A DNA stretch of 53,444 nt from Chloroflexota bacterium (lineage in GTDB: Bacteria > Chloroflexota > Anaerolineae > UBA1429). Position 1 is the stretch's first letter; each line of letters begins with the position of its first letter. Positions 4,516 through 44,428 of the stretch are shown here, in pieces. The DNA lies in contig DAIRUQ010000003.1 of the NCBI GenBank assembly GCA_036803245.1, forward strand, positions 1 through 53,444. Reading direction: 5' to 3'. Under the pieces are notes generated by a model. The model worked only from the letters and a program-made list of their open reading frames with translations. It made no database searches and had not been told where the DNA came from. The position numbers and the translations under genes were made by a program.

Positions 4516-4520
4516 GCTAT

Positions 4521-4893
4521 GGGAGAGAGGGCCGGGCGATCGCGTGGCGCCATTGGCGCCCCGAGGAAAGTCCGAACTCCATAGAGCACGGCGCTGGGTA
4601 ACGCCCAGGCGGAGCGATCCGGCGGAAAAGTGCAACAGAAAGCAGGTCGCCGGCCAAGCCGGCAAGAGTGAAACGGTGGCGTAAGAGGCCACCAGCGGGC
4701 CAGGTGACTGGCTCGGCTAGGCAAACCCCGCCGGGAGCAAGACCAAGCAAGAGGCCGGTCCCTTCGGGGGCCACGGGCTGCTCGCCTGAGCCTCGGGTAG
4801 GTCGCTGGAGGCGTCGAGCAATCGGCGTCCTAGATAGATGATCGCCGCCCCGGGCTCCGGGGCACAGAATTCGGCTTATAGGCCCTCTCTCCC
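4521..4893 (+). ncRNA. rnpB: RNase P RNA, bacterial type A
   Basis: P1 pairing GGGAGAGAGGGCC (4521-) with GGCCCTCTCTCCC (-4893). Conserved blocks read directly: GAGGAAAGTCCG, GGGTAACGCCCAGG, CAACAGAAAGC, GTGAAACGGTGGCGTAAGAG, GGCAAACCCC, CTAGATAGATGATCGCC, ACAGAATTCGGCTTATA. Confidence 0.92.
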
Positions 4894-4960
4894 TTTTGGG
4901 CGGCTGCCGATGTGAACACTGTGGCGGGTTGGATGCCCTCTGTCTGCCTGCTCCAGAGGT

Positions 4961-4989
4961 TTGACACTCGTTGCCAGCCATGGTACACT
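4961..4989 (+). promoter_or_regulatory. promoter for infC-rpmI-rplT (TTGACA-17 nt-TACACT)
   Basis: TTGACA at 4961-4966, 17-nt spacer, TACACT at 4984-4989. Confidence 0.5.
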
Positions 4990-8663: not shown

Positions 8664-9773
8664 ATGCCCACCGTCTGTGGTATTCGTTTCCGGGGCGTTG
8701 GCCGCGTGTACTTTTTTGCGCCCAAAGAGGGACTGTCTCTTGAGGAGGAGGACTCGGTCATTGTCGAGACCGCGCGTGGGCTCGAGCTAGGCCGCGTTGT
8801 CTTTGCTAGCCGCGACGTGCCCAAGAGCCAGATCGTGGGTGAACTCAAGCCCGTGCTACGAAAGGCGAACACCGAAGAGCTGCTGGACGCGGTGCGGTTC
8901 GAGCACAAGGAGCAAGCCGCTCTGGAGGCCTGTCGCGAACGAGTTGCCGAGCTCGGGCTGCCGATGAAGATCGTGGACGCCGAATACAGCTACGACGGCA
9001 GCCGCTTGACGTTCTACTTTGCCGCTGAGCAGCGCGTCGACTTTCGCGACCTGGTGCGCGATCTCGCTCGGTCGTTTGGCACGCGCATCGACCTGCGCCA
9101 GATCGGCGTGCGTGATGAGGCCAAGCTGATCGGCGGTATCGGCAAATGTGGCCGGTCACTCTGCTGCGCGACCTGGCTGACGGGGTTCGCCCCGATCTCG
9201 ATCCGCATGGCCAAGAGCCAGAACCTGCCGCTCAGCCCCTCGGAGATCTCGGGTCAGTGCGGGCGGCTCTTGTGCTGCCTCGGTTACGAGGAAGACCTGT
9301 ATCGCGCCGTGAAAAAAGAGTTCCCCAAAGAGGGGCGGACGGTCGAGACCGAGCTGGGGCCCGCCAAGGTGCTGCGGGTGGACGTGCTCTCCGAGCAGGC
9401 GCAGGTGCGCTTTGACGATGGCACGCTCATGAGCCTGACGGCCGCGCAGCTGCGGGGTGAGGAGCCGATTGTGGAGGCCGATCCCGCCAGCCTCGCCGAG
9501 GAGCAGCGCAAGGCGCTCCAATCGGTTCTGGGCGGGCCGCGGCCGGTCGAAACGTCGCCGGTGGCGACCAACGCCAAGCTCCCCTCGCAAGGTTCAGGAG
9601 ATCCTGCCCAAGAGGGTCAGGAGAGCAAGCCCCGTCGCCGCTCGCGACGGCGAAAGCCCCGCTCCGGCCAGGCTCGGGAGAGCGCGCCCGCTGATCAGGA
9701 CGGGGCGGCCTCTAGGCAGCAGCCCGGTCGACGGTCAAAGCGCCGACCCCGTCGCCCACAGAGCGAGTCTTAG
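8664..9773 (+). CDS. PSP1-domain protein (YaaT/RicT-like) with an Arg-rich C-terminal tail
   Basis: PSP1 core with Cys clusters CGRSLCCATWL and GQCGRLLCCLGYEEDLY. The last ~100 aa are low-complexity (KPRRRSRRRKPRSGQ...RRSKRRPRRPQSES). Confidence 0.85.
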   Translation: MPTVCGIRFRGVGRVYFFAPKEGLSLEEEDSVIVETARGLELGRVVFASRDVPKSQIVGELKPVLRKANTEELLDAVRFEHKEQAALEACRERVAELGLPMKIVDAEYSYDGSRLTFYFAAEQRVDFRDLVRDLARSFGTRIDLRQIGVRDEAKLIGGIGKCGRSLCCATWLTGFAPISIRMAKSQNLPLSPSEISGQCGRLLCCLGYEEDLYRAVKKEFPKEGRTVETELGPAKVLRVDVLSEQAQVRFDDGTLMSLTAAQLRGEEPIVEADPASLAEEQRKALQSVLGGPRPVETSPVATNAKLPSQGSGDPAQEGQESKPRRRSRRRKPRSGQARESAPADQDGAASRQQPGRRSKRRPRRPQSES

Positions 9774-9789
9774 CGCGAGGACTGCGTTG

Positions 9790-10635
9790 CTAGCCGGATC
9801 GCTGTCGCTCCGCGGCCAGTTGGCTGAGGGCGGCTTGTAGCTGCGCATGGCAGTGCGGGGGGACCTCGACGTCTCCCAACACGTTTTCGGGAACGACCGT
9901 CGCGCCGTGGAAATCGCTACCGCCGGTGCAGATCAACCCATGCGCTCTGGCCATCGCGACGATGCTGGCCGTTACGTCGGGCGAGTAGCCAGTATAGTAG
10001 GCTTCCAGGCCATCGAGCCCACATTCGACGAGCTCCGGCGTCACAGGCAGATGCTCGGCCGGGTGTGCCAGCACTGTTACGCCCCCAGCGCGGTGGATAG
10101 CTGCGATGGCCTCGCACGGGCCGATCTTTTCGCGAGGTACGTAGGCGGGACGCCCGTTCCCCAGGTAGCGCTCAAAGGCCTCCTGTACGGAACGCACATG
10201 CCCCGCTTCCTGTAGGGCTGCGGCGATGTGAGGACGCCCTACCGTGCCCTCGCCCGCCAGCGCGCGAACCCGATCCCAGCCGATGGGCATGCCGAGACTC
10301 GCAAGCAAGCCGAGCATTCGCTGGGCCCGCTCGACGCGCGAGCCGCGAGAGCGCGCCAAGAGCGCCTCTAGCTCCTGGTCGTCCGACGAGATGCCATATC
10401 CGAGGATGTGCAGCTCGCCCGCAGGATGGTGGGTGCTGATCTCTACGCCAGGGACGAGCGTCAGCCCCTCACGCGCCGCAGCCGCACGGGCGGGGACGAG
10501 ACCATCAGTGGTATCGTGATCGGTAATACCGAGGACGGCGATGCCGCACAAAGCCGCAAGGGCGACCAGCTCCTCGGGCGGTAGGGCGCCGTCCGAAGCG
10601 GTCGTGTGCGTATGCAGATCGATGCCAAGCGTCAT
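9790..10635 (-). CDS. PHP-domain metal-dependent phosphoesterase (TrpH/YciV-like)
   Basis: IDLHTHTTASDGALPPEELV...LGITDHDT...GGSDFHG. Confidence 0.85.
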   Translation of the reverse strand: MTLGIDLHTHTTASDGALPPEELVALAALCGIAVLGITDHDTTDGLVPARAAAAREGLTLVPGVEISTHHPAGELHILGYGISSDDQELEALLARSRGSRVERAQRMLGLLASLGMPIGWDRVRALAGEGTVGRPHIAAALQEAGHVRSVQEAFERYLGNGRPAYVPREKIGPCEAIAAIHRAGGVTVLAHPAEHLPVTPELVECGLDGLEAYYTGYSPDVTASIVAMARAHGLICTGGSDFHGATVVPENVLGDVEVPPHCHAQLQAALSQLAAERQRSG

Positions 10636-12416: not shown

Positions 12417-12445
12417 TTGACGACAACTGCTCTCTTTTCTAGAAT
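12417..12445 (+). promoter_or_regulatory. promoter at the head of the redox/encapsulin block (TTGACG-17 nt-TAGAAT)
   Basis: TTGACG at 12417-12422, 17-nt spacer, TAGAAT at 12440-12445. GGAGGA at 12470-12475 precedes the ATG at 12481. Confidence 0.6.
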
Positions 12446-12480: not shown

Positions 12481-12948
12481 ATGCCCGAGAAGACCGTCCT
12501 AGAGAACATCCTGGGTGTGGCGATCCAGCGTGAGGAGGCCGCCGCGGCCCTGTATGCCAGCGCCGCCAAGCAGGTGGAACCCGGCCCCGTGCTCGACCTC
12601 CTGATCGAGCTCAAGCAGCAAGAGATTGGGCACAAGCTTCGCCTGCAGCAACTACTGGACAAGGGCACCTTCCGCCGCATCTCGGCTGTGCAGCGGCGCC
12701 AGGTTGAAGACCTCAAGCTGACCGACTATTTGAAGGAAGAGGCGCTGGACCCCGAGACCGACTTGCAGGGCGTGCTGATTGTGGCCGGCAAGCGCGAAAA
12801 GGCCAGCCACGATCTCTATGCCGGCCTCGCCCAGGTGACCGATGACGCCGAGGTGAACGAGCTGTTCCGCTTTTTGGCCAACGAGGAACTGGGCCACAAG
12901 CATCGGATCGAGACCATGTATGAGGAGCTGTTCCTCCAGGACAACTAG
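12481..12948 (+). CDS. rubrerythrin-like diiron four-helix-bundle protein without a rubredoxin domain ('erythrin')
   Basis: E / ExxH / E / ExxH ligand set: IQREEAAAALY, KQQEIGHKLR, KREKASHDLY, ANEELGHKHR. Confidence 0.8.
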   Translation: MPEKTVLENILGVAIQREEAAAALYASAAKQVEPGPVLDLLIELKQQEIGHKLRLQQLLDKGTFRRISAVQRRQVEDLKLTDYLKEEALDPETDLQGVLIVAGKREKASHDLYAGLAQVTDDAEVNELFRFLANEELGHKHRIETMYEELFLQDN

Positions 12949-12996
12949 GAGGAGCTCTTTCTACGCCAAGCGCACGATGACCGCAAGGAGTATGTA

Positions 12997-13161
12997 ATGG
13001 CCAAGTACGAGTGCCTCGTTTGTGGCTATATCTATGATCCCGCCGAGGGTGATCCCGACGGTGGAGTTGAGCCCGGCACGGCCTTTGAGGACATTCCGGA
13101 GGACTGGGTCTGCCCCGAGTGCGGCGCCGGCAAGGACATGTTTGAGCAGATTGAGGACTAG
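12997..13161 (+). CDS. rubredoxin
   Basis: 54 aa, below the ORF-track cutoff: [54 protein letters not shown]. It has two CxxCG knuckles. AAGGAG lies 6 nt upstream of the ATG. Confidence 0.93.
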
Positions 13162-13184
13162 CTACTAGACACCTGATCCCGCGC

Positions 13185-13217
13185 GGGCCGGTGCATCTGG
13201 CCAGATGTGACCGGCCC
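13185..13217 (+). other. long GC hairpin between rubredoxin and its reductase (no U-tract)
   Basis: GGGCCGGTgCATCTGG/CCAGATGtgACCGGCCC, read directly. It may be an intercistronic stabiliser, processing site or partial terminator. Confidence 0.45.
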
Positions 13218-13277
13218 GTGGCGGAGAGAGAAGCGAACGCGCAGTCGGCTCAATCCGCATAGGCTCCCGGAGGCGGG

Positions 13278-14516
13278 ATGAGGTTCGTCATCGTCGGGAA
13301 TGGAATCGCGGGCGTCACGGTGGCGCGCACGGCATTGCAGGGTGATCAAAATCCTGATATCACCCTGCTTTCGCGCGAGCCCTATGCCTACTATCCCCGG
13401 CCACGTCTCATAGACTTGATTGCCGGAGACGATGACCCCAGCAGTATTCAGCAGTATCCCGATGATTGGTATGCCAAGCACGGGATCCGCCAGGTTCTGG
13501 GGGCTCGCGTCACGCGGTTGGCCCCGGAGGAGCATCGGGTCTACCTGAGCGATGGCAGCACCGAGGCGTATGACGTTCTGGTGTTGGCCACGGGAGCCGC
13601 CTCATGGATGCCACCGGTGCCTGGGATCGACAGCCCCGGCGTCTTTGGCCTTCGCAACATGGCGGACGCGCTGGCTATCCGCCAACGAGCCAAGCAGGTG
13701 CGCAGTGCTGCCATCATCGGCGGCGGGCTCTTGGGGCTCGATCTGTCCGTTGCGCTAAGGGCCCACGGGCTGGATGTATCGGTCATCGAACTGCTTCCGC
13801 GACTCTTGCCCCGCCAGCTCGATGATGCGGGGGCCGAGATTCTCTGCCACGCCATGAGCGAGCGAGGTGTGGGGGTGCTCACGGGGCACCCCTGTTCTCA
13901 CATTCGGGCTGACGGCGATGGGTTGACCATCGCCCTGGAAGATGGCCCTGAGCTGCGCACCGACATGATCGTGGTGGCGGTGGGGGTTCGGCCCGAGGTG
14001 GAGCTGGCGGCGTCGGCGGGGATCGCTTGCGGGCGCGGCGTGCTGGTGGACGACCACTTGGCCACCAGCGCTGCTGATGTCTATGCTGTGGGCGACGTGG
14101 CCGAGTTCGACGGCCGCGTGTGGGGCATCATCCCTGCGGCGGTGGCACAGGCGCGCGTTCTGGGGCGGATTCTCGCTGGCGATACTGGTGCCACCTACAC
14201 GGATATCGTTCCCAGCACCACGCTCAAGGTGACGGGGATCGATTTGGCGTCGCTGGGCGAGGTCAACCCCGCCGACGAAACTGCGTACACGGCGGTGGTC
14301 AACTCCGATGAGCACGCCAACCGCTACTGCAAGTTGGTGTTGAGGCAGGGACATATCGTTGGGGCCATCGTCATGGGTGACCGCGAACGGGTCGGTCCTA
14401 TCAGTCAGTTGATCAACGAGGACGCGGACGTTTCTGGCTATGAGGAGCGCCTCGTAGCCGACGACTTTGATCTGCGAGCTTTTGTTCGAGAGCACGCCAA
14501 GGCCCACGGATCCTAG
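13278..14516 (+). CDS. NAD(P)H-dependent FAD oxidoreductase, rubredoxin-reductase-like
   Basis: Two dinucleotide folds (FVIVGNGIAG; AAIIGGGLLGLD) and a ...YAVGDVAE motif. Sits directly downstream of rubredoxin. Confidence 0.8.
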   Translation: MRFVIVGNGIAGVTVARTALQGDQNPDITLLSREPYAYYPRPRLIDLIAGDDDPSSIQQYPDDWYAKHGIRQVLGARVTRLAPEEHRVYLSDGSTEAYDVLVLATGAASWMPPVPGIDSPGVFGLRNMADALAIRQRAKQVRSAAIIGGGLLGLDLSVALRAHGLDVSVIELLPRLLPRQLDDAGAEILCHAMSERGVGVLTGHPCSHIRADGDGLTIALEDGPELRTDMIVVAVGVRPEVELAASAGIACGRGVLVDDHLATSAADVYAVGDVAEFDGRVWGIIPAAVAQARVLGRILAGDTGATYTDIVPSTTLKVTGIDLASLGEVNPADETAYTAVVNSDEHANRYCKLVLRQGHIVGAIVMGDRERVGPISQLINEDADVSGYEERLVADDFDLRAFVREHAKAHGS

Positions 14517-14558
14517 TGCAGGGCAGCAGGCCAGGTTTCGGGGTGCAAGGAGGGTACG

Positions 14559-15509
14559 ATGAGCGAGACCACCATCGCGTTGCTTCGAGAGGACATGAAG
14601 GGCGAGCATCAGGCGATTATCCAGTATCTGCGACACGCCTATGCCCTGGGGGAGACGCCCGAGGCAGCCGAGATTGAGGGCATCGCCCGCGAGGAGATGC
14701 GTCACTTTCACTGGCTGGCTGACGCCATCGTAGAGCTCGGCGGCGATCCGACAATGGAGCGCCCGCCCGTGGACGAAACCCGCGACGCCCCCTCCGTCCA
14801 GATGCTCAAGGATGTCGACCTGGAGCAACAGGCCATCGATCAATACCGCGATCACATCGAGCGCATCGATGATCCCAAGATTCGGCGGTTGCTGTCGCGC
14901 ATCCTCCATGATGAGCTGGTGCACAAGGGTGAGTTTGCCGAGTTTGCCGAGGCGCTTGAGGAGCAGCTCGCAGCCGAAGAGGGCGAGGGCGAGGCGACCG
15001 ATGCGGCTCCCAGCGCGCGGCTGGCTGAGGTCCTCAACCAAGGGGTGCAGCACGAGTATTCGGTCGTGCTCCAGTATCTCTACCATGCCTTTATGACGCC
15101 CGACAAGGAGCCTGCTGAGGAGATCGAGGATATCGCCATCAACGAGATGCAGCACCTGGGCTGGCTGGCCGAAGAGCTCTTTGAAAAGGGAGCCGACGCC
15201 AAGTTCGAGCATGGCAAGCTGGTACTCACCGATGATATCATCCAGAACCTCAAGGCCGATATCGCCATCGAGCGCGAGGTCACCGAGGACTATTCTGAGC
15301 AGATCCCCGAGTTCACGGAAGAGGATATCGTGGCCTTGGTGGAGCGGATCCGCGACCACGAGATCGATCACACGGCGGTGTTCCAGTACTTGCTGGATGA
15401 GGCCAAGGAACAGGCATCCATCGAGACGGCCGAGCCGCCCAAGGATGCCGATGAGCCCAAGGGACCGCCCAAGCCGCCTTCGGTCGGCAGCCTGGTCAAT
15501 CGCGGGTAG
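14559..15509 (+). CDS. tandem ferritin/bacterioferritin-like diiron protein with a C-terminal encapsulin targeting-peptide-like tail (putative cargo)
   Basis: Two four-helix-bundle halves, each with E/ExxH/E/ExxH. Half 1: GEHQAIIQY, EEMRHFHW, LEQQAIDQY, HDELVHKGE. Half 2: VQHEYSVVLQY, INEMQHLGW, IAIEREVTEDY, RDHEIDHTAV. Then a P/K/E-rich linker (ETAEPPKDADEPKGPPKPP) and the terminal SVGSLVNRG. The stop lies 30 nt before the shell gene. Confidence 0.85.
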   Translation: MSETTIALLREDMKGEHQAIIQYLRHAYALGETPEAAEIEGIAREEMRHFHWLADAIVELGGDPTMERPPVDETRDAPSVQMLKDVDLEQQAIDQYRDHIERIDDPKIRRLLSRILHDELVHKGEFAEFAEALEEQLAAEEGEGEATDAAPSARLAEVLNQGVQHEYSVVLQYLYHAFMTPDKEPAEEIEDIAINEMQHLGWLAEELFEKGADAKFEHGKLVLTDDIIQNLKADIAIEREVTEDYSEQIPEFTEEDIVALVERIRDHEIDHTAVFQYLLDEAKEQASIETAEPPKDADEPKGPPKPPSVGSLVNRG

Positions 15510-15539
15510 TGCATGCCGAGCATTGCAGAGGAGGATACC

Positions 15540-16313
15540 ATGAGCGACTATTTGTTGCGTGACGATGCCCCGATCAGCCCTGAAACCTGGGCCAAGGTCG
15601 ATGACATGGTGGTGACCGTCGCGAAAAAGAACCTTGTAGGCCGCAAGGTGCTCGAGATCGCTGGTCCGTTGGGCTGGGGTGTGGATGTGGCTCCGCGGTT
15701 TGGCTTTGCGGTCGACGATGATGCCTACGTGGCCGACGCGCCCGCCTATATCCAGCTGAAAGAGATCGCGGCAGAGTTCACGCTCAAGGCGCAGCACTTG
15801 GCCATGGCCGAGCAGACGCCCTATGGCCTGGATCTCGGCGCGGTAGCGATGGCTACCGTCAAGGTGGTTGGCGCAGAAGATGATCTCGTGGTGGGAGGCC
15901 TGATCAAGGCGGCCACCAAGAAAGCCGACTTGGGCGACTGGACCGCTATGGGCGGCCCGTTTGCGGCGGTTTCGCGGGGCATTGCTCTGTTGCGCAAGGC
16001 GGGCATCGACGAGCCGTACGCCCTGGTGCTCAGCCCGCTCAAGTACGCCCAGCTGGCCAGCCTCATGCAGCATGGTCGGCGTGAGCTCGCCATGGTCGAG
16101 AGCGTTGCCAAGGGTGGGATTCACCAATACGCGGACATGCCAGACGACCAGGTGCTCCTGATCGGCGCCGCGTCTTGGAATGCCGACATTGTGCTTGGCC
16201 AGGATCTGGTCACGGCCTATCTGGGCAACGAGGGCCTCGATCATCGCTTCCGCGTCTTTGAGACGGTGGCGCTTCGCATCAAGCGCTCCGACTGCGTTTG
16301 CGTGTTAGCGTAG
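15540..16313 (+). CDS. family-1 encapsulin shell protein (HK97 fold, linocin M18-like)
   Basis: MSDYLLRDDAPISPETWAKVDDMV...LVGRKVLEIAGPLGWGV...IDEPYALVLSP...GGIHQYADMPDDQVLLIGAASWNADIVLGQDLVTAYLG...FRVFETVALRI. This is collinear by eye with T. maritima encapsulin. GAGGAGGA precedes the ATG at 15540, and the ORF-track start at 15513 is likely too early. Confidence 0.92.
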   Translation: MSDYLLRDDAPISPETWAKVDDMVVTVAKKNLVGRKVLEIAGPLGWGVDVAPRFGFAVDDDAYVADAPAYIQLKEIAAEFTLKAQHLAMAEQTPYGLDLGAVAMATVKVVGAEDDLVVGGLIKAATKKADLGDWTAMGGPFAAVSRGIALLRKAGIDEPYALVLSPLKYAQLASLMQHGRRELAMVESVAKGGIHQYADMPDDQVLLIGAASWNADIVLGQDLVTAYLGNEGLDHRFRVFETVALRIKRSDCVCVLA

Positions 16314-16359
16314 CGATCCAAAGGTCCACCGAGCTGCCGCGACCATAGGAGGCGTCTCC

Positions 16360-18096
16360 ATGCCTATCAATGACATGACCTTTCGGATCGGCGGCGAAGC
16401 GGGCCAGGGCGTCGAGTCAGGCGCGGCGGGCTTTGCCAAGGCGCTGGCCCGCTCTGGCCTGCACCTCTGCGGCATCCCCGACTATTACTCGCGCATCCGC
16501 GGCGGGCACAACTTTTTCACGATCCGGGTCGGCGAGGAGCCCGTTCCCGCCACGCGTGACCATGTGGATCTCCTCATCGCTTTGACGGCGGAGACGGTGA
16601 CGCGCCACGTGGAGGCGCTTTCTCCAGGCGCGGCCGTTATCATCGATGACCAGCAGCCCCTTGAGGATGCTCTGCTAGAGGGCCGTGACCTGAATCTGGT
16701 GCGGCTTCCTCTGCTCGAGATCGCCAAGGGCGAGGGCAACGAGGTGATGGTCAATACCGCCGCTCTGGCTGCGGCCGCCGCCATCACCGAGCTGCCGCTC
16801 GACGCGGTGATGGACGTTATCGCCGAGAACTTTGCCAAGAAGGGCGACAAAGTCGTCGAGGCCAACCGACGTGTGGCCGAGGCGGCCTTTGACGAGGCTC
16901 TGGCAGCCCTCGAACGCCCCTTCGCGTGGAAGTTGCAGCCGATCGACGCCCCCCAGCGCGTGGTTATCAGCGCCAACCAGGCCTTTGCCATGGGCGCTCT
17001 CGTGGCTGGGTGCCAGTTCGTAGCGGGCTATCCGATGACGCCAGCCACCTCGGTGCTCGAGTACATGGCCACCCACGCCGAAGAGTGGGGCCTGGTCGTC
17101 AAGCATACAGAGAGCGAGATTGCCGCCATCAACATGTGCGTGGGGGCTGCCAATGCGGGCGTCCGCGCCATGGCGCCCACCTCGGGCGGCGGCTTTGACC
17201 TGATGACCGAGGGCCTTAGCTTGGCGGGGATGACCGAAACGCCGTTGGTGATCTACCTGGCGGGGCGACCTGGTCCCGCCACAGGGCTGGCCACGCGCAC
17301 GGCCCAAGCCGATCTGTTCCTGGCGATGCACGCGGGCCACGGCGAGTTTCCGCGCGTGATCCTGGCGCCCCACACGCCCCAGGCCTTTTTCGAGGCCGCG
17401 ATCCGTGCGTTCAACATTGCCGAGCGCTACCAGCTTCAGGTGATCGTGCTTTCGGATCAGTATGCCGCCTCGGGCATCTGGACCGTTGATGCCGACGCGT
17501 TTGACGTGGAGCACGTCCTCGTCGATCGTGGCAAGTGGCTGGCCGCGGAGGATCTGGCGTCGATGGAGTCCTATCAGCGCTATGCGATCACCGAGGATGG
17601 CGTGTCGCCTCGGGCGATTGCAGGGATCGATCCCAAGGCGGTATACCTGACGACGGGCAACGAGCACCGCGAGGATGGACATATCACCGAGGACCCCGCG
17701 ATCACGACCGCGATGACTGGCAAGCGTCTCCGCAAGCTCGAGGCAGCACGCGCCGATATCGGCGGACCGATCTGCTACGGCCCAGAAGATGCAGCCATGA
17801 CCTTTGTCTCGTGGGGGTCGACCTATGGCGCGCTGAGCGAGGCCGTCGATGCGCTGAACCGTGGCGGTGATAGCGCGAACCTGGTCCACCTGGTGGATCT
17901 GGTGCCGCTGCCGTCGGACCTGGTCCGCGAGGCTCTCGCAAGCTCCAAGAAGATCATTGTCGTTGAGGGCAACGCTCAGGGGCAGTTGGCCCAGCACCTA
18001 TGGACAGAGGCGGGCATCCGCGCTGATGAGACTCTGAAAAGGTACGATGGGCGCGGCTTTACGGCCGACTATATCCTAGAGAATATCGGGGGGTAG
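16360..18096 (+). CDS. korA: 2-oxoacid:ferredoxin oxidoreductase, alpha subunit (fused gamma-alpha type)
   Basis: 578 aa: FRIGGEAGQGVESGA... then ...GYPMTPATSVLEYM. 4-nt gap to the beta subunit. Substrate (2-oxoglutarate or pyruvate) is not decidable by eye. Confidence 0.88.
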   Translation: MPINDMTFRIGGEAGQGVESGAAGFAKALARSGLHLCGIPDYYSRIRGGHNFFTIRVGEEPVPATRDHVDLLIALTAETVTRHVEALSPGAAVIIDDQQPLEDALLEGRDLNLVRLPLLEIAKGEGNEVMVNTAALAAAAAITELPLDAVMDVIAENFAKKGDKVVEANRRVAEAAFDEALAALERPFAWKLQPIDAPQRVVISANQAFAMGALVAGCQFVAGYPMTPATSVLEYMATHAEEWGLVVKHTESEIAAINMCVGAANAGVRAMAPTSGGGFDLMTEGLSLAGMTETPLVIYLAGRPGPATGLATRTAQADLFLAMHAGHGEFPRVILAPHTPQAFFEAAIRAFNIAERYQLQVIVLSDQYAASGIWTVDADAFDVEHVLVDRGKWLAAEDLASMESYQRYAITEDGVSPRAIAGIDPKAVYLTTGNEHREDGHITEDPAITTAMTGKRLRKLEAARADIGGPICYGPEDAAMTFVSWGSTYGALSEAVDALNRGGDSANLVHLVDLVPLPSDLVREALASSKKIIVVEGNAQGQLAQHLWTEAGIRADETLKRYDGRGFTADYILENIGG

Positions 18097-18100
18097 CCAT

Positions 18101-18976
18101 ATGGTCAGCGTCAAGGACTTTTCCAATGACATTCGACCGACGTGGTGCCCTGGGTGCGGCGACTATGGCATCTGGAATTCCCTGAAGCGGGCCCTGGTGC
18201 AGGCTGAGCTTACGCCCCAACAGGTGATGCTGGTCAGCGGCATCGGCTGCGGCAGCAAGATCAGCGACTATATGACCATCAATGGGCTGCACACCCTGCA
18301 TGGTCGCGCCTTGGCCGTCGCGACGGGATACAAGCTGGCCAACCACGGCATGAAGGTGATCTGCGTCCACGGCGATGGCGACGGCTATGGCATGGGCGCG
18401 AACCATATGCTCCACGCCGTCCGCCGCAATATCGGCATCGTTGATATGGTGCAGGATAACCATGTGTATGGGCTCACCAAGGGGCAATACAGCCCCACCA
18501 GCCGCGCGGGCTTTCGCACCAAGACCTCGCCGCACGGCCCTCTGGATCGGCCCGTGAATCCGCTGGCGCTGGCGCTATCTCAGGGGGCGACCTTTGTGGC
18601 GCGCGGCTTTGCCCTGGATCTCAAGGGGCTGATCGAGCTGATGGTGATGGCCCTCGATCATCGCGGCTATGCCCTGATCGACATCATGCAGCCCTGTGTG
18701 TCGTTCAACAAGAGCATGGACTATGACTGGTTCTCCGAGCACACGTATCGCGTGGAGGACGAGGGGCACGATCCCAGCGACAGAATGGCGGCCATGGCGC
18801 GGGCGTTCGAGTACCCAGGTGGCGAGCGCATCCCGTTGGGTCTGATCTATCGCACCGAGGAGGTGCCTTCCTACGAAGAGCAGGTTCCTGCTCTGCAAGG
18901 CGGTCCGCTGGCGCAGCAGTCGCTGCGTAGCCGACCCGCGGAGGCATACCGCCAGTTGCTGGACGAGCTCGCCTAG
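18101..18976 (+). CDS. korB: 2-oxoacid:ferredoxin oxidoreductase, beta (TPP-binding) subunit
   Basis: PTWCPGCGDYGI...SGIGC...VHGDGDGYGMGANH. Confidence 0.9.
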   Translation: MVSVKDFSNDIRPTWCPGCGDYGIWNSLKRALVQAELTPQQVMLVSGIGCGSKISDYMTINGLHTLHGRALAVATGYKLANHGMKVICVHGDGDGYGMGANHMLHAVRRNIGIVDMVQDNHVYGLTKGQYSPTSRAGFRTKTSPHGPLDRPVNPLALALSQGATFVARGFALDLKGLIELMVMALDHRGYALIDIMQPCVSFNKSMDYDWFSEHTYRVEDEGHDPSDRMAAMARAFEYPGGERIPLGLIYRTEEVPSYEEQVPALQGGPLAQQSLRSRPAEAYRQLLDELA

Positions 18977-18985
18977 GAGGCCAGC

Positions 18986-19498
18986 ATGCGGGTGACGGTC
19001 TATAGCACGCCGAGCTGTCCCTACTGCCACCAGGTCAAGCAGTACCTGGGGGGGCGTGGCGTGGCTTTCGAGGACCACGACGTGTCTCGTGATCCTTCCG
19101 CCGCGCAGGAAATGCTTCGGATCTCGGGCCAGCGCGGCGTGCCAGTCGTGCAGATCGGCGACCAGGTGGTGGTTGGCTTCGATCGGCCGCGGTTGGACGC
19201 CTTGCTGGACGGCGCTGCTCGAAAGGGCATGGGGGTAGCGGTGGCCGATGCCGCCGATATGGCCGCCCGCGGCGTGACCGACCTGGCCAGCGGCGCCTAT
19301 GTGGGGCGCGTCAGGGCAGATAGCGTGGCCGCGCGGGCTGGCATCGCGGCGGGCGATGTGATCGTATCGCTGGCGGGGGAGCCTGTGCGCTCCGCGGCCA
19401 GCCTGGAGACGTTGGTGGCGCGGGTTCCCGAGGGCCGCGCTGTGTCAGTCGAATACGTCCGCAATGGGCGGCGTTTCAACGTAACATTGGAGCTCTAG
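18986..19498 (+). CDS. glutaredoxin-like (CPYC) domain fused to a PDZ domain
   Basis: N-terminus: VTVYSTPSCPYCHQVKQYL...GVPVVQIGDQVVVGFD (Grx/NrdH fold). C-terminus: GAYVGRVRADSVAARAGIAAGDVIVSLAGEPVRSAASLETLV...VEYVRNGRRFNVTLEL (PDZ). Confidence 0.8.
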   Translation: MRVTVYSTPSCPYCHQVKQYLGGRGVAFEDHDVSRDPSAAQEMLRISGQRGVPVVQIGDQVVVGFDRPRLDALLDGAARKGMGVAVADAADMAARGVTDLASGAYVGRVRADSVAARAGIAAGDVIVSLAGEPVRSAASLETLVARVPEGRAVSVEYVRNGRRFNVTLEL

Positions 19499-19540
19499 CA
19501 GCCATCGCGCGGCGATGGCCCAACGATGGGAGGGACCAGA

Positions 19541-20038
19541 ATGTCGACCAAGGATGCCGCTCTGCAGGCGCTCAGCCAGGCTTTGCGTCTGGAGCAAGAG
19601 GGGCGCGCCTTTTATCTGCAGGCGGCCAAGGACACGGTGGATGAAAAGGGCCAGGCCATGTTCCTCTCGCTGGCCGACGATGAAGCCAAGCATGCTGATA
19701 TGATCCAGCGGCAGTTCCATGCCATTGAAGGCGGCGGCGACTATGTCCTGCTGCCTGATCTACAGGTTGCCGAGATCGACCTGGGGAAAAAGCTGTTCCC
19801 GCCCGACGCCGACGCCATCCGCGGCGCAGCGGATCAGGCCACCAACGAGCTCGAGGTGCTGCACCTGGCGCTCGACAACGAGATCAAGAGCTATGACCTC
19901 TATTGCGAGGCGGCCGATTCCACAGAAGACGATGCGGGGCGTGCCATGTACGCGTGGCTGGCCCAGGCCGAGAGGCAGCACTTTGATCTGCTCATGAGCA
20001 ACTGGGAATCCCTAACCGCCATGGGCGGCTGGGTCTAG
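19541..20038 (+). CDS. rubrerythrin-like diiron protein ('erythrin'), paralog 2
   Basis: LEQEGRAFY, ADDEAKHADM, LDNEIKSYDLY, AQAERQHFDL. GGGAGGGA precedes the ATG at 19541. The ORF-track start is 19526. Confidence 0.75.
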   Translation: MSTKDAALQALSQALRLEQEGRAFYLQAAKDTVDEKGQAMFLSLADDEAKHADMIQRQFHAIEGGGDYVLLPDLQVAEIDLGKKLFPPDADAIRGAADQATNELEVLHLALDNEIKSYDLYCEAADSTEDDAGRAMYAWLAQAERQHFDLLMSNWESLTAMGGWV

Positions 20039-20071
20039 CGATCCGCCAGACGGGTCGGAGAGGAGACATTC

Positions 20072-20599
20072 ATGTCGACAGCCAAGAGCCTCGAGGTCCT
20101 CAAGCGAGGGATGAAGACCGAGCTCTGGGGACAGCGTTTCTACCGCGAGGCCGTCGCTCGCACAGAGTCTGAGGACGGCAAGCGCGTATTCCAGAGCCTG
20201 GTCGACGAAGAGGGCAAGCATCTCGATATTCTTCGAGGGCAGTACGCCAGCCTGTCTGAGCAGGGTGGTTGGGTTTCACCCAGCCATGCGCTAGAGATGG
20301 CCGAGGCGGCCGAATCGACGCACATCTTTCCTGAGGCCGAGGATGTAGAGCAGCTCATCGCCGATGACACCACCGACCTGGGTGCGCTCGAGATGGCCAT
20401 GGAGTTCGAACGACGCGGCTATGAGCAGTACATGGACAATGCTGAGGATGCTGATTCGCCCGAGGCGCAGGATCTGTGGCGCACCCTGGCGGATTGGGAA
20501 GACCAGCACTTTGCCTTCCTGCAAAAGAGTCACGACTTTTTGAGCAGCAACGGGTCTTGGTACTTTGACGAAGAGGAGCTTCCCTTCTTTGAGGGCTGA
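20072..20599 (+). CDS. rubrerythrin-like diiron protein ('erythrin'), paralog 3
   Basis: TELWGQRFY, VDEEGKHLDI, MEFERRGYEQY, ADWEDQHFAF. Confidence 0.75.
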   Translation: MSTAKSLEVLKRGMKTELWGQRFYREAVARTESEDGKRVFQSLVDEEGKHLDILRGQYASLSEQGGWVSPSHALEMAEAAESTHIFPEAEDVEQLIADDTTDLGALEMAMEFERRGYEQYMDNAEDADSPEAQDLWRTLADWEDQHFAFLQKSHDFLSSNGSWYFDEEELPFFEG

Positions 20600-20626
20600 T
20601 AGGCCTCTAGGAATCGACGGCTCGCG

Positions 20627-21337
20627 ATGATCGGGACATTCATCAACGCCGCCGCCGTGCTCGTGGGCGGCGGCCTTGGTACGTGGTTGGGGCAGCGGCT
20701 CCCGCCACGGATCCGCGACACCGTGCAGAACGGCCTGGGCCTGGTGACCATGCTGGCGGGCCTGCAGATGGCCTTGCAGACCGAGAACATCCTCATCACC
20801 ATGGGGAGCCTGCTGGTAGGTGGCATCCTGGGCGAATGGTGGCATCTGGATGAGGGCCTCACCAGGATGGGCGACCGCCTCAAGGCGTTCACGGCCCAAC
20901 GGCTGGGTACGGGCAACCTGGGGCTGTTCACGGAAGGGTTTGTCACCGCGAGCCTGGTGTTCTGCGTGGGGCCGATGACCGTGCTCGGCTCGATTCAGGA
21001 CGGCCTCACGGGCGACTATACCCTGCTGGCGATCAAATCCATGCTGGATGGCTTTGCCGCCCTGGTGTTCTCGTCGTCGATGGGCATTGGCGTGGTGTTC
21101 TCGGTGCTGACGATCCTGCTGTTCCAGGGGGCCATCACGTTGGGGGCTGGCGCGGTCCAGACGATCCTCACCGACGCCATGATCGCCGAGATGACAGCGG
21201 TCGGTGGGGTCATCATTATCGGCATTGCGCTGTTGCTGCTGGACCTCAAGCGGATCCGCATTGCCAGCTTTTTGCCGTCTTTGGCCATCGCTCCTGCTCT
21301 GGTTTGGCTACTGACCGCCTTGGGCGTGGCCTGGTAG
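20627..21337 (+). CDS. DUF554-family integral membrane protein
   Basis: MIGTFINAAAVLVGGGLGTWLG... Polytopic and hydrophobic throughout. Family assignment is from memory of YdfK/YqgA-like N-termini. Confidence 0.75.
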   Translation: MIGTFINAAAVLVGGGLGTWLGQRLPPRIRDTVQNGLGLVTMLAGLQMALQTENILITMGSLLVGGILGEWWHLDEGLTRMGDRLKAFTAQRLGTGNLGLFTEGFVTASLVFCVGPMTVLGSIQDGLTGDYTLLAIKSMLDGFAALVFSSSMGIGVVFSVLTILLFQGAITLGAGAVQTILTDAMIAEMTAVGGVIIIGIALLLLDLKRIRIASFLPSLAIAPALVWLLTALGVAW

Positions 21338-21360
21338 AAGGACAAGCCAAGTGACGGGGA

Positions 21361-21389
21361 GGGGGGTATGGCCAGCGGCCATACCCCCC
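21361..21389. terminator. 13-bp GC hairpin, bidirectional terminator between DUF554 (+) and the AIM24-like gene (-)
   Basis: GGGGGGTATGGCC-agc-GGCCATACCCCCC followed by TTGGCG. Confidence 0.7.
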
Positions 21390-21407
21390 TTGGCGTCAAA
21401 ACGCGCG

Positions 21408-22088
21408 CTAGCCCTTGCTGGGGATATACTTGGAGATCTTTTGGGCCAGATTCGCGATGGGCATGCTCTGGAGCCAGATGTGCCCAGGCCCCTTGAGCGT
21501 GGCCAGAAAGAGCCCCTCGCCCGAAAAGAGGGCGTTGGTGATTCCCTTGACGGTGCTGATGTCATAGTCCACGCTGGGCTCATACAGCGCAATGTGGCCT
21601 GGGTCGACTTGCATGACTTGGCCCGCGGCCAGGTCATAGTCGCGGACGTCTCCCGCGATCTCCAGGAACACGGTGCCTGGCCCGCTGATCTTTTGCAGGA
21701 TAAAGCCTTCACCACCGAACAGGCCCGCGCCCAGCCGCTTGCGAAAGTGCATCTCCACGGAGACGCTCTCTTCAGCCGCCATAAAGGTGTCTTTCTGGCA
21801 GATCAGGCTTTGGCCAGAGCCGAGCTCGAACACCAGGATCCTGCCAGGCGCTTCTGGCGTAAAGGTGACCATGGAAGATCCGCGATTGCAGCGGTACGAC
21901 GTCATGAACAATGATTCGCCCGCCAGTTTACGACCGAGGCCCGCCATGAGGCCTCCGCGTGTGTTGGTGTTCATGGCAACATCGCCCTGCATCCAGGCCA
22001 TCCCACCCGACTCGGTAAAGACCGACTCGCCCGCTTCCAGGTAGATGTCCACCGACGGCAGGACCGATCCGTTGATCTCGTAGCGCAT
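21408..22088 (-). CDS. AIM24/DUF124 (TIGR00266) family protein
   Basis: MRYEINGSVLPSVDIYLEAGESVFTESGGMAWMQGDV... from the ATG at 22086-22088 after GGAGGAGGGAG. The ORF-track start at 22124 is over-extended. Confidence 0.8.
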   Translation of the reverse strand: MRYEINGSVLPSVDIYLEAGESVFTESGGMAWMQGDVAMNTNTRGGLMAGLGRKLAGESLFMTSYRCNRGSSMVTFTPEAPGRILVFELGSGQSLICQKDTFMAAEESVSVEMHFRKRLGAGLFGGEGFILQKISGPGTVFLEIAGDVRDYDLAAGQVMQVDPGHIALYEPSVDYDISTVKGITNALFSGEGLFLATLKGPGHIWLQSMPIANLAQKISKYIPSKG

Positions 22089-36712: not shown

Positions 36713-36785
36713 GCGGGTGTAGCTCAGTTGGCAGAGCGTCTGCTTCCCAAGCAGAATGTCGTGGGTTCGAATCCCATCACCCGCT
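36713..36785 (+). tRNA. tRNA-Gly (anticodon CCC)
   Basis: Cloverleaf read by hand: acceptor GCGGGTG/CACCCGC, D arm GCTC-AGTTGGCA-GAGC, anticodon arm TCTGC-TTCCCAA-GCAGA, T arm GTGGG-TTCGAAT-CCCAT. No encoded CCA. Confidence 0.9.
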
Positions 36786-36824
36786 CTCGAGCCTGGCAGA
36801 ATGGCCTGGCTCCATATCCAACAC

Positions 36825-44182: not shown

Positions 44183-44345
44183 CTTGTTGCTCGATCACAT
44201 GGCGTGGGACGGGTAACGGCGTCTCTGGGCCATGGCCGCGTGGAGACGGCAGCATGGTAGCAGGGAGCCGTGTGGGAGGCAAGGGCTAGCGATGCGCTTG
44301 GGGAACGCAAAGAGGCGACCCGCTGCGCGAGCCGCCTCTCTCTAG

Positions 44346-44428
44346 TGCCCCCGACTGGACTCGAACCAGCACGTCCATACGGACACAGGCCCTCAACCTG
44401 CTGTGTATGCCAATTCCACCACGGGGGC
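44346..44428 (-). tRNA. tRNA-Leu (anticodon GAG), long variable arm
   Basis: Minus strand: GCCCCCG-TG-GTGGAATTGGCATACAC-A-GCAGG-TTGAGGG-CCTGT-GTCCGTATGGACGT-GCTGG-TTCGAGT-CCAGT-CGGGGGC-A. Confidence 0.88.

Follow-up and report, generated by a model that had tools for sequence, protein, structure and literature searches.

What does a gene for a fused pair of ferritin-like bundles do beside an encapsulin shell gene in a Chloroflexota bacterium? We addressed this question for positions 14559-16313 of a 53,444-nucleotide stretch of contig DAIRUQ010000003.1, the whole of which is called the window here. An earlier note, made from the letters of the window, had read this region as a family 1 encapsulin with a single-chain tandem diiron cargo carrying a loading tail, that is, as an iron-mineralizing nanocompartment, and had implied that such an architecture was new. 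From our analysis, it is very likely that the pair is a family 1 encapsulin with a double ferritin-like protein (DFLP) as its core cargo, tethered through a targeting peptide, which would oxidize Fe2+, deposit ferric iron, and protect an anaerobe from Fenton chemistry; this judgment covers the identity and the general mechanism jointly. The features of the pair are as follows, with the confidence of the AlphaFold2 models given as the predicted local distance difference test (pLDDT).

14559-15509, + strand: DFLP cargo by sequence, 316 aa
14559-14978, + strand: predicted N-terminal four-helix bundle of the DFLP, residues 1-140 (helices 2-30, 34-59, 78-102, 106-140)
14979-15014, + strand: predicted flexible interdomain linker, residues 141-152 (pLDDT dips to about 68, no secondary structure)
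15015-15431, + strand: predicted C-terminal four-helix bundle of the DFLP, residues 153-291 (helices 153-179, 183-209, 227-251, 255-291)
15432-15473, + strand: predicted disordered Pro/Lys/Glu-rich tether, residues 292-305 (pLDDT 51-63; length and sequence variable among homologs)
15474-15506, + strand: putative targeting peptide PPSVGSL, residues 306-312, followed by VNRG
15540-16313, + strand: family 1 encapsulin shell protein by profile and predicted fold, 257 aa

The shell gene was analyzed by profile search and by structure prediction, two of the checks that the earlier note had proposed for it. The open reading frame (ORF) matched PF04454 (Linocin_M18) from end to end with E=5.8e-44 (150.7 bits; cutoff 24.3) and, over its full length, the NCBIfam equivalog model NF041155 (encap_f1) with 164.1 bits (cutoff 100). 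All of the sequence blocks from which the note had recognized an encapsulin were found, namely LLRDDAPISPETWAKVD, GRKVLEIAGPLGW, EPYALVLSP, and GG...LLIG...DIVLGQDLVTAYLG. The nearest solved shell sequences were the Myxococcus xanthus EncA entries (E about 1e-34). An AlphaFold2 model built from 41 homologs had a mean pLDDT of 93, and the top Foldseek matches of this predicted structure were all encapsulins, with TM scores of 0.86-0.90 for the shells of EncA (T=3/T=1), D. quercicolus, B. methanolicus, and Q. thermotolerans. For T=1 shells, such as that of T. maritima, the TM score was about 0.80. That the model fits protomers of T=3/T=4 shells better is no more than a hint of a larger shell, and no T number follows from it. 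Two in-frame starts are possible, at 15513 and at 15540. The ATG at 15513 was disfavored, and the 257-aa reading is preferred, because the ATG at 15540 has GAGGAGG 7-8 nt in front of it and the homologs begin at an equivalent MSDYL. With this start, 30 nt separate the cargo stop from the shell gene; the ORF coordinates and the spacing given earlier were correct. Judged by its sequence profiles and its predicted HK97 fold, 15540-16313 is a genuine family 1 (classical) encapsulin shell gene, as the note had claimed.

Next, we analyzed the cargo gene, whose start is preceded by AGGAGG. Its AlphaFold2 model (pLDDT 92) showed eight helices that form two four-helix bundles, with a tail disordered from about residue 292. 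The two halves could be aligned over 134 aa with 31% identity (E=8e-18), every ligand falling opposite its counterpart, and both contained a complete EEHEEH diiron ligand set: E16, E46/H49, E89, and E119/H122 in the N-terminal half, and E166, E196/H199, E238, and E268/H271 in the C-terminal half. Thus the tandem diiron bundles in one chain described in the note were borne out, and so was the completeness of both ligand sets, although the Glu assigned to the third helix of the second half had to be corrected to E238. Fourteen positions were invariant in an alignment of 41 homologs, namely the twelve diiron ligands plus M47 and M197. These two Met residues align with M48 and M198 of TmDFLP, the DFLP of Thermocrinis minervae, and by this analogy they are probable ligands of an inter-domain Met/Met heme site. 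The cargo contains no Cys.

As for the family of the cargo, PF00210 (Ferritin) matched it in two stretches, and PF02915 matched as well. However, among the ferritin, rubrerythrin, and bacterioferritin models that the note had suggested for it, the bacterioferritin (Bfr) equivalog TIGR00754 reached only 36.7 bits (cutoff 125.55). The models of the EncFtn type also stayed below their cutoffs, NF058679 (EncB_fam) with 59.2 bits against 90 and TIGR04535 with 39.2 bits against 125. Because these scores are well under their cutoffs, the cargo is, at the level of profile matches, neither an EncFtn nor a classical Bfr; together with the two full four-helix bundles, this agrees with the contrast to EncFtn/Flp drawn in the note. 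The best sequence match in the PDB was 9viw_A (TmDFLP, 306 aa, labeled 'Bacterioferritin'), with E=3.7e-36 over residues 6-268 of the cargo, and BLASTP gave 34% identity to TmDFLP with E=6e-40. A fold search with the cargo against a PDB library with entries to April 2026, from which 9VIW is seemingly absent, returned only single-domain Bfr and mini-Bfr matches, and single domains of the cargo superposed on the mini-bacterioferritin and bacterioferritin folds. The DFLP assignment therefore rests on the sequence search, and every sequence-level feature of a DFLP was found in this cargo. An 829-aa antisense ORF at 13755-16244 on the minus strand, which spans the upstream reductase gene, the DFLP, and the shell, had no Pfam match and was rejected as a high-GC artifact.

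The implied novelty of the architecture did not hold. Two-bundle 'Bfr' cargos with conserved C-terminal targeting peptides were catalogued in 2021 by Andreas & Giessen in Nat Commun, with hosts among Firmicutes, Aquificae, Chloroflexi, and Cyanobacteria (PMC8346489), and such cargos were modeled in a 2024 review (PMC11202242). In a September 2025 preprint, Anuchina et al. named them DFLPs and described TmDFLP, with the crystal structure 9VIW, and CaDFLP from Caldanaerovirga acetigignens; both were dimers or monomers rather than cages and bound sub-stoichiometric heme, probably via two universally conserved Met residues (bioRxiv 10.1101/2025.09.13.676036). TmDFLP has a diiron site in its N-terminal domain (NTD) and ferroxidase activity, consuming Fe2+ and yielding Fe3+. 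Across the family, EEHEEH was reported for 79.6% of the NTDs, the C-terminal domain (CTD) was variable with EEHEEH in 57.3%, and the two Met residues were 100% conserved. The same preprint lists 56 DFLPs with C-terminal encapsulin-targeting peptides, presents AlphaFold models of targeting peptides with shells, and reports that CaDFLP adjoins a family 1 shell gene (bioRxiv 10.1101/2025.09.13.676036). The 'Bfr' cargo class of 2021 corresponds to the DFLPs, which were given their present name later; 24-mer-like cages were assumed for it, whereas the later data indicate dimers. The architecture is therefore already described and partly characterized, Chloroflexota members included, and this locus is an ordinary new addition to a known family.

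The cargo of the window resembles TmDFLP and CaDFLP in its two Bfr-like bundles per chain, the flexible linker, the EEHEEH of the NTD, both conserved Met residues, and a disordered C-terminal tether with x-x-[VI]-G-S-L at its end. Its low-confidence linker (residues 141-152) corresponds to the unresolved linker of TmDFLP, and the cargo-then-shell order, with rubrerythrin and rubredoxin genes nearby, is also that of CaDFLP. However, the CTD of TmDFLP carries ESHEEH in place of a complete EEHEEH, and the absence of Cys means that an inter-protomer disulfide is lacking in the window protein. Their tails have Phe where the tail in the window has Pro, and their systems differ from ours, in which the shell is short (257 aa) and the gene cluster is a longer one of 11 genes with a 2-oxoacid:ferredoxin oxidoreductase (OFOR) and a glutaredoxin-PDZ fusion (Grx-PDZ).

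Similarities to other systems were also observed. The M. xanthus EncA shell with EncB/C/D is the closest solved shell (TM up to 0.89), uses xTVGSL-type targeting, and has a role in iron sequestration and oxidative stress to which the window system can be likened; its cargos, in contrast, are EncFtn-type half-ferritins, a class whose two-helix protomers of about 100 aa form decamers, and the shell in the window is about 30 residues shorter. E. coli Bfr and P. aeruginosa BfrB have the same diiron ligand set, with a heme site formed by two Met residues where two bundles meet. A small iron-sulfur redox protein is encoded near classical Bfr as well, Bfd there and rubredoxin in the window, but classical Bfr is a single 158-aa bundle that forms 24-mer cages and has neither a targeting tail nor a shell partner. 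In the anaerobic archaeon Pyrococcus furiosus, rubrerythrin and an iron-oxidizing encapsulin cooperate under oxygen stress, and rubrerythrin tubules enclose particles of a ferritin-like/encapsulin fusion (bioRxiv 10.1101/2025.03.19.643997). Unlike in the window, the ferritin-like domain there is fused to the shell and the rubrerythrin has its own rubredoxin-like domain; tubules are not implied for the window.

Relatives of the cargo were then sought. We found 1224 database proteins at E<=1e-10, as well as 77 clusters at 50% identity and E<=1e-30 among 1.84 billion representatives, with source annotations of 'bacterioferritin' or 'ferritin-like domain-containing protein' for the cargo and 'family 1 encapsulin' for the shell. 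The relatives occurred in 405 GTDB species genomes, and the neighborhoods in the best 80 of these were compared. All 80 were metagenome-assembled genomes (MAGs) of Chloroflexota (Anaerolineae, Dehalococcoidia, and Caldilineae), many of them from anaerobic reactors and sediments; the nearest was the MAG Anaerolineae bacterium AnMBR.bin280, with 91% identity for the DFLP and 95% for the shell. For synteny beyond Chloroflexota, we relied solely on the preprint account of C. acetigignens (bioRxiv 10.1101/2025.09.13.676036).

The C-terminus of the cargo, ...ETAEPPKDADEPKGPPKPPSVGSLVNRG, carries the Pro/Lys/Glu linker and the SVGSLVNRG loading tail reported in the note. Of 121 sequences, made up of the cargo of the window and its 120 best database homologs, 119 contained [I/P/V]-P-[S/T/P]-[V/I]-G-S-L followed by 1-7 residues. 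As seen in the clade logo, Pro is invariant where canonical targeting peptides (LTVGSL/FTVGSL) have L or F. We considered whether this Pro-anchored tail is a new targeting-peptide variant and rejected the idea, as equivalent tails (RPIPSVGSL, PQPPTVGSL, PAPPSVGSL, and PPVPPIGSL) appear in Fig S6 of the DFLP preprint (bioRxiv 10.1101/2025.09.13.676036). A regex scan of the C-termini of all ORFs of >=60 aa found no other targeting-peptide-like C-terminus in the window; three other matches were short and non-coding-looking.

We then analyzed whether the tail tracks the shell gene in the best 80 genomes. A tail together with an adjacent shell gene was observed for 41 complete DFLPs, whereas 34 had neither tail nor shell and ended right after the last helix. 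Two DFLPs with a shell had the variant tails VGKL and VGNL, and in one the tail was present with the shell missing from the locus. After flank-length filters, and with the shell gene sought <=600 nt downstream of the DFLP, a shell was found for 39/40 tailed and 0/29 untailed DFLPs (Fisher p=1.3e-18, not corrected for phylogeny). Tail and shell are thus gained and lost together. The type of tail also followed the type of shell: when the shells of the 80 loci (L001-L080) were clustered, short shells (256-265 aa, the clade of the window) were always paired with Pro-anchored tails of the form xP[STP][VI]GSL, and longer shells (267-292 aa) mostly with [F/L/W]TVGSL tails. In locus L002, the shell query gave two separate matches, the better one at 9358-9903, and the shell gene may be split or frameshifted there.

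On this chromosome of an uncultured member of the Anaerolineae, the pair lies within a co-linear cluster of 11 genes at 12481-21337, which consists, apart from the DFLP and the shell, of the following features.

12417-12445, + strand: possible cluster promoter TTGACG-17-TAGAAT, a 10/12 consensus match just upstream of rbr1 (weak evidence)
12481-12948, + strand: rubrerythrin-like diiron protein without rubredoxin domain, rbr1 (PF02915, E=3e-10; syntenic in most close loci)
12997-13161, + strand: rubredoxin, 54 aa (PF00301, E=1.1e-25; NF045768, 106 bits, cutoff 90)
13278-14516, + strand: FAD/NAD(P)H oxidoreductase with a rubredoxin-reductase C-terminal domain, NROR-like (PF07992, E=4.7e-58; PF18267, E=1.9e-19; syntenic)
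16360-18096, + strand: OFOR alpha (TIGR03710, 622 bits, over cutoff; syntenic)
18101-18976, + strand: OFOR beta (TIGR02177, 344 bits, over cutoff; syntenic)
18986-19498, + strand: glutaredoxin-like (YruB-type) and PDZ fusion, Grx-PDZ, 170 aa (PF00462, E=5.8e-20; PF13180, E=2.8e-13; TIGR02196, 93.5 bits, cutoff 88.55)
19526-20038, + strand: rubrerythrin-like diiron protein (PF02915, E=7.3e-12; syntenic)
20072-20599, + strand: rubrerythrin-like diiron protein (PF02915, E=8.7e-11; syntenic)
20627-21337, + strand: DUF554 membrane protein, end of the co-linear cluster (PF04474, E=1.6e-76; syntenic)

The order is therefore rubrerythrin-like, rubredoxin, NROR-like, DFLP, encapsulin, OFOR alpha, OFOR beta, Grx-PDZ, rubrerythrin-like, rubrerythrin-like, and DUF554. 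Gaps between the genes are 4-116 nt, the NROR-like stop lying 42 nt before the DFLP start, and Shine-Dalgarno sites are present. No terminator-like site was found in the intergenic gaps of 12481-21337, and the scan otherwise gave only one weak promoter-like site. The complete cluster was found in 16/80 loci, all from Anaerolineae (it was seen among L001-L031), and in about a dozen more of the 80 the order was kept as far as the contig reaches. Protein identity across the co-linear loci was only about 50-60%. The 11 genes are probably co-transcribed as one oxidative-stress operon. Rubredoxin and rubrerythrin genes near CaDFLP, from a Firmicute, are the only fragments of this linkage in print (bioRxiv 10.1101/2025.09.13.676036). 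The cluster is the one point beyond the published picture, a modest and incremental addition.

Rubredoxin was encoded upstream of the DFLP in most loci. In locus L036 (3600-10800), the neighbors of an untailed DFLP are a flavodiiron protein, NROR, rubrerythrins, DJ-1/PfpI, superoxide reductase (desulfoferrodoxin), FMN reductase, and a molybdopterin oxidoreductase, an array after which come OFOR, Grx-PDZ, and rubrerythrin-like genes as in the window. These neighbors are a classical anaerobic set for defense against reactive oxygen species (ROS), and as this DFLP is non-encapsulated, DFLPs therefore belong to ROS-defense clusters with or without a shell.

Several further observations were made in and around the cluster. 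The rubredoxin gene, between rbr1 and the FAD reductase, is missed by ORF lists with a 60-aa minimum. The YruB-type Grx-PDZ fusion is kept in the cluster. All three rubrerythrin-type paralogs (12481-12948, 19526-20038, and 20072-20599) are without a rubredoxin domain; the last two gave sub-threshold EncFtn-like and EncB_fam matches, but they were rejected as cargo as they have no targeting tail. A 187-aa ORF at 21351-21914 (+), right after DUF554, matched no Pfam or NCBIfam model. The window is chromosomal and rich in GC (about 62-68%), and it also carries the his operon, genes for tRNA synthetases, holB, and an RNase P RNA. The latter is of class A, at 4524-4894 (+) with 295 bits, and the ORF at 4517-4981 (-) is therefore spurious. 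ARAGORN placed tRNA-Gly(CCC) at 36713-36786 (+) and tRNA-Leu(GAG) at 44345-44428 (-), of which Rfam recovered only Gly at its gathering threshold.

These data suggest how the compartment would work. The shell protein would self-assemble into an HK97-fold icosahedral shell, and the DFLP would be tethered to its inner surface, the disordered Pro/Lys/Glu linker offering PPSVGSL to the conserved targeting-peptide groove. By analogy with TmDFLP and CaDFLP, the cargo would be a homodimer rather than a 24-mer cage, with two complete diiron sites per chain. It would oxidize Fe2+ arriving via the shell pores, using O2 or H2O2, and the ferric product would be kept in the shell lumen. Because the pair sits in a conserved rubrerythrin/rubredoxin/NROR cluster, its physiological role is most likely the protection of an anaerobe from oxidative stress, with Fenton-active Fe2+ removed alongside rubredoxin/rubrerythrin-based peroxide reduction. 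Most simply, the DFLP and its encapsulin would serve the oxidative-stress operon as its iron-sequestering arm.

Several points weigh against this interpretation. For the proteins of the window, we infer how the shell would assemble and be loaded (T number included), that the cargo would be a dimer with heme and ferroxidase activity, and that the compartment would store mineral and act against stress. The first hydrophobic anchor of the targeting peptide is replaced by Pro, and the binding geometry may differ. The synteny with rubredoxin and NROR-like genes could reflect shared regulation rather than shared mechanism. Many diiron-carboxylate proteins oxidize Fe2+ in vitro whatever their physiological role. 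Ferroxidase activity is known only for TmDFLP, which is 34% identical, and the encapsulation of DFLPs has so far been backed by modeling and genomics only, not by co-purification (bioRxiv 10.1101/2025.09.13.676036).

Other explanations were weighed against the same evidence. The shell ORF might be a prophage or degenerate HK97 capsid gene with a ferritin-like neighbor by coincidence, and since encapsulins and phage capsids have the HK97 fold in common, the fold alone cannot discriminate between them. However, the curated family 1 equivalog model was matched over its cutoff, and the gene pair is kept across dozens of species with tail and shell strictly coupled. Among the annotated genes of the window there was no terminase, portal, protease, or other phage gene; the annotated neighbors are redox or housekeeping genes instead. 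A phage-capsid origin is thus effectively refuted, and we give it almost no weight. Alternatively, the cargo could form a shell within a shell, in which 12 chains, with 24 ferritin domains between them, make up a Bfr-like cage that is packaged in the encapsulin and stores iron in its own interior. The catalogue paper of 2021 proposed this arrangement (PMC8346489), the 2024 review modeled it (PMC11202242), and it suits the Bfr-like nature of each domain and an NTD/CTD arrangement that mimics a Bfr subunit dimer with its Met/Met heme site. Against it, purified TmDFLP and CaDFLP were dimeric or monomeric, small-angle X-ray scattering showed no hollow spheres, and AlphaFold3 builds cages for true ferritins but not for these two proteins (bioRxiv 10.1101/2025.09.13.676036). 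We therefore consider an inner cage very improbable.

The cargo could also be mainly a rubrerythrin-like, rubredoxin-dependent peroxide or oxygen reductase, with rubredoxin and the NROR-like protein as donors and iron storage secondary or absent. Of the tailed loci 31/38, and of the untailed loci 17/23, had a rubredoxin and/or NROR-like gene <=3 kb upstream of the DFLP, and untailed DFLPs stand in classical anaerobic ROS-defense clusters with superoxide reductase, flavodiiron protein, and rubrerythrin. The diiron sites are also of the same E/ExxH type as in rubrerythrin, in line with the PF02915 match of the cargo. Rubredoxin, however, is roughly 6 kDa and is not expected to pass encapsulin pores, so that an encapsulated DFLP could not be reduced by it directly. 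Moreover, the cluster already has three rubrerythrin-like proteins able to use rubredoxin, the closest sequence and fold relatives of the cargo are bacterioferritins rather than rubrerythrins, and TmDFLP consumes Fe2+ and produces Fe3+ (bioRxiv 10.1101/2025.09.13.676036). For the pair in the window, a mainly reductase function is therefore likewise very improbable; free DFLPs could plausibly be rubredoxin-driven peroxidases, but encapsulation does not fit easily with such a role. A related proposal goes further than the iron-sequestering compartment that we favor. Rubredoxin and the NROR-like protein might be redox partners dedicated to the DFLP and reach it via the inter-domain heme, much as Bfd acts on Bfr, either to mobilize stored iron or to recycle the diiron sites for peroxide reduction. 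The 11-gene cluster would then be one integrated iron-and-ROS module to which OFOR supplies low-potential electrons. We put this forward tentatively and regard it as rather doubtful.

Close Chloroflexota relatives of the cargo are already included in the published targeting-peptide table, and a single further instance adds little. The co-variation of tail and shell, itself a useful if incremental result, is the cleanest genomic evidence so far for the DFLP tail as a shell-loading signal. With both of its diiron sites complete and cysteines absent, the cargo of the window would be a convenient protein with which to ask whether the second domain is catalytic. Furthermore, encapsulated and free DFLPs are both found in rubredoxin-centered anaerobic oxidative-stress clusters, which gives testable hypotheses on their electron partners and their role.

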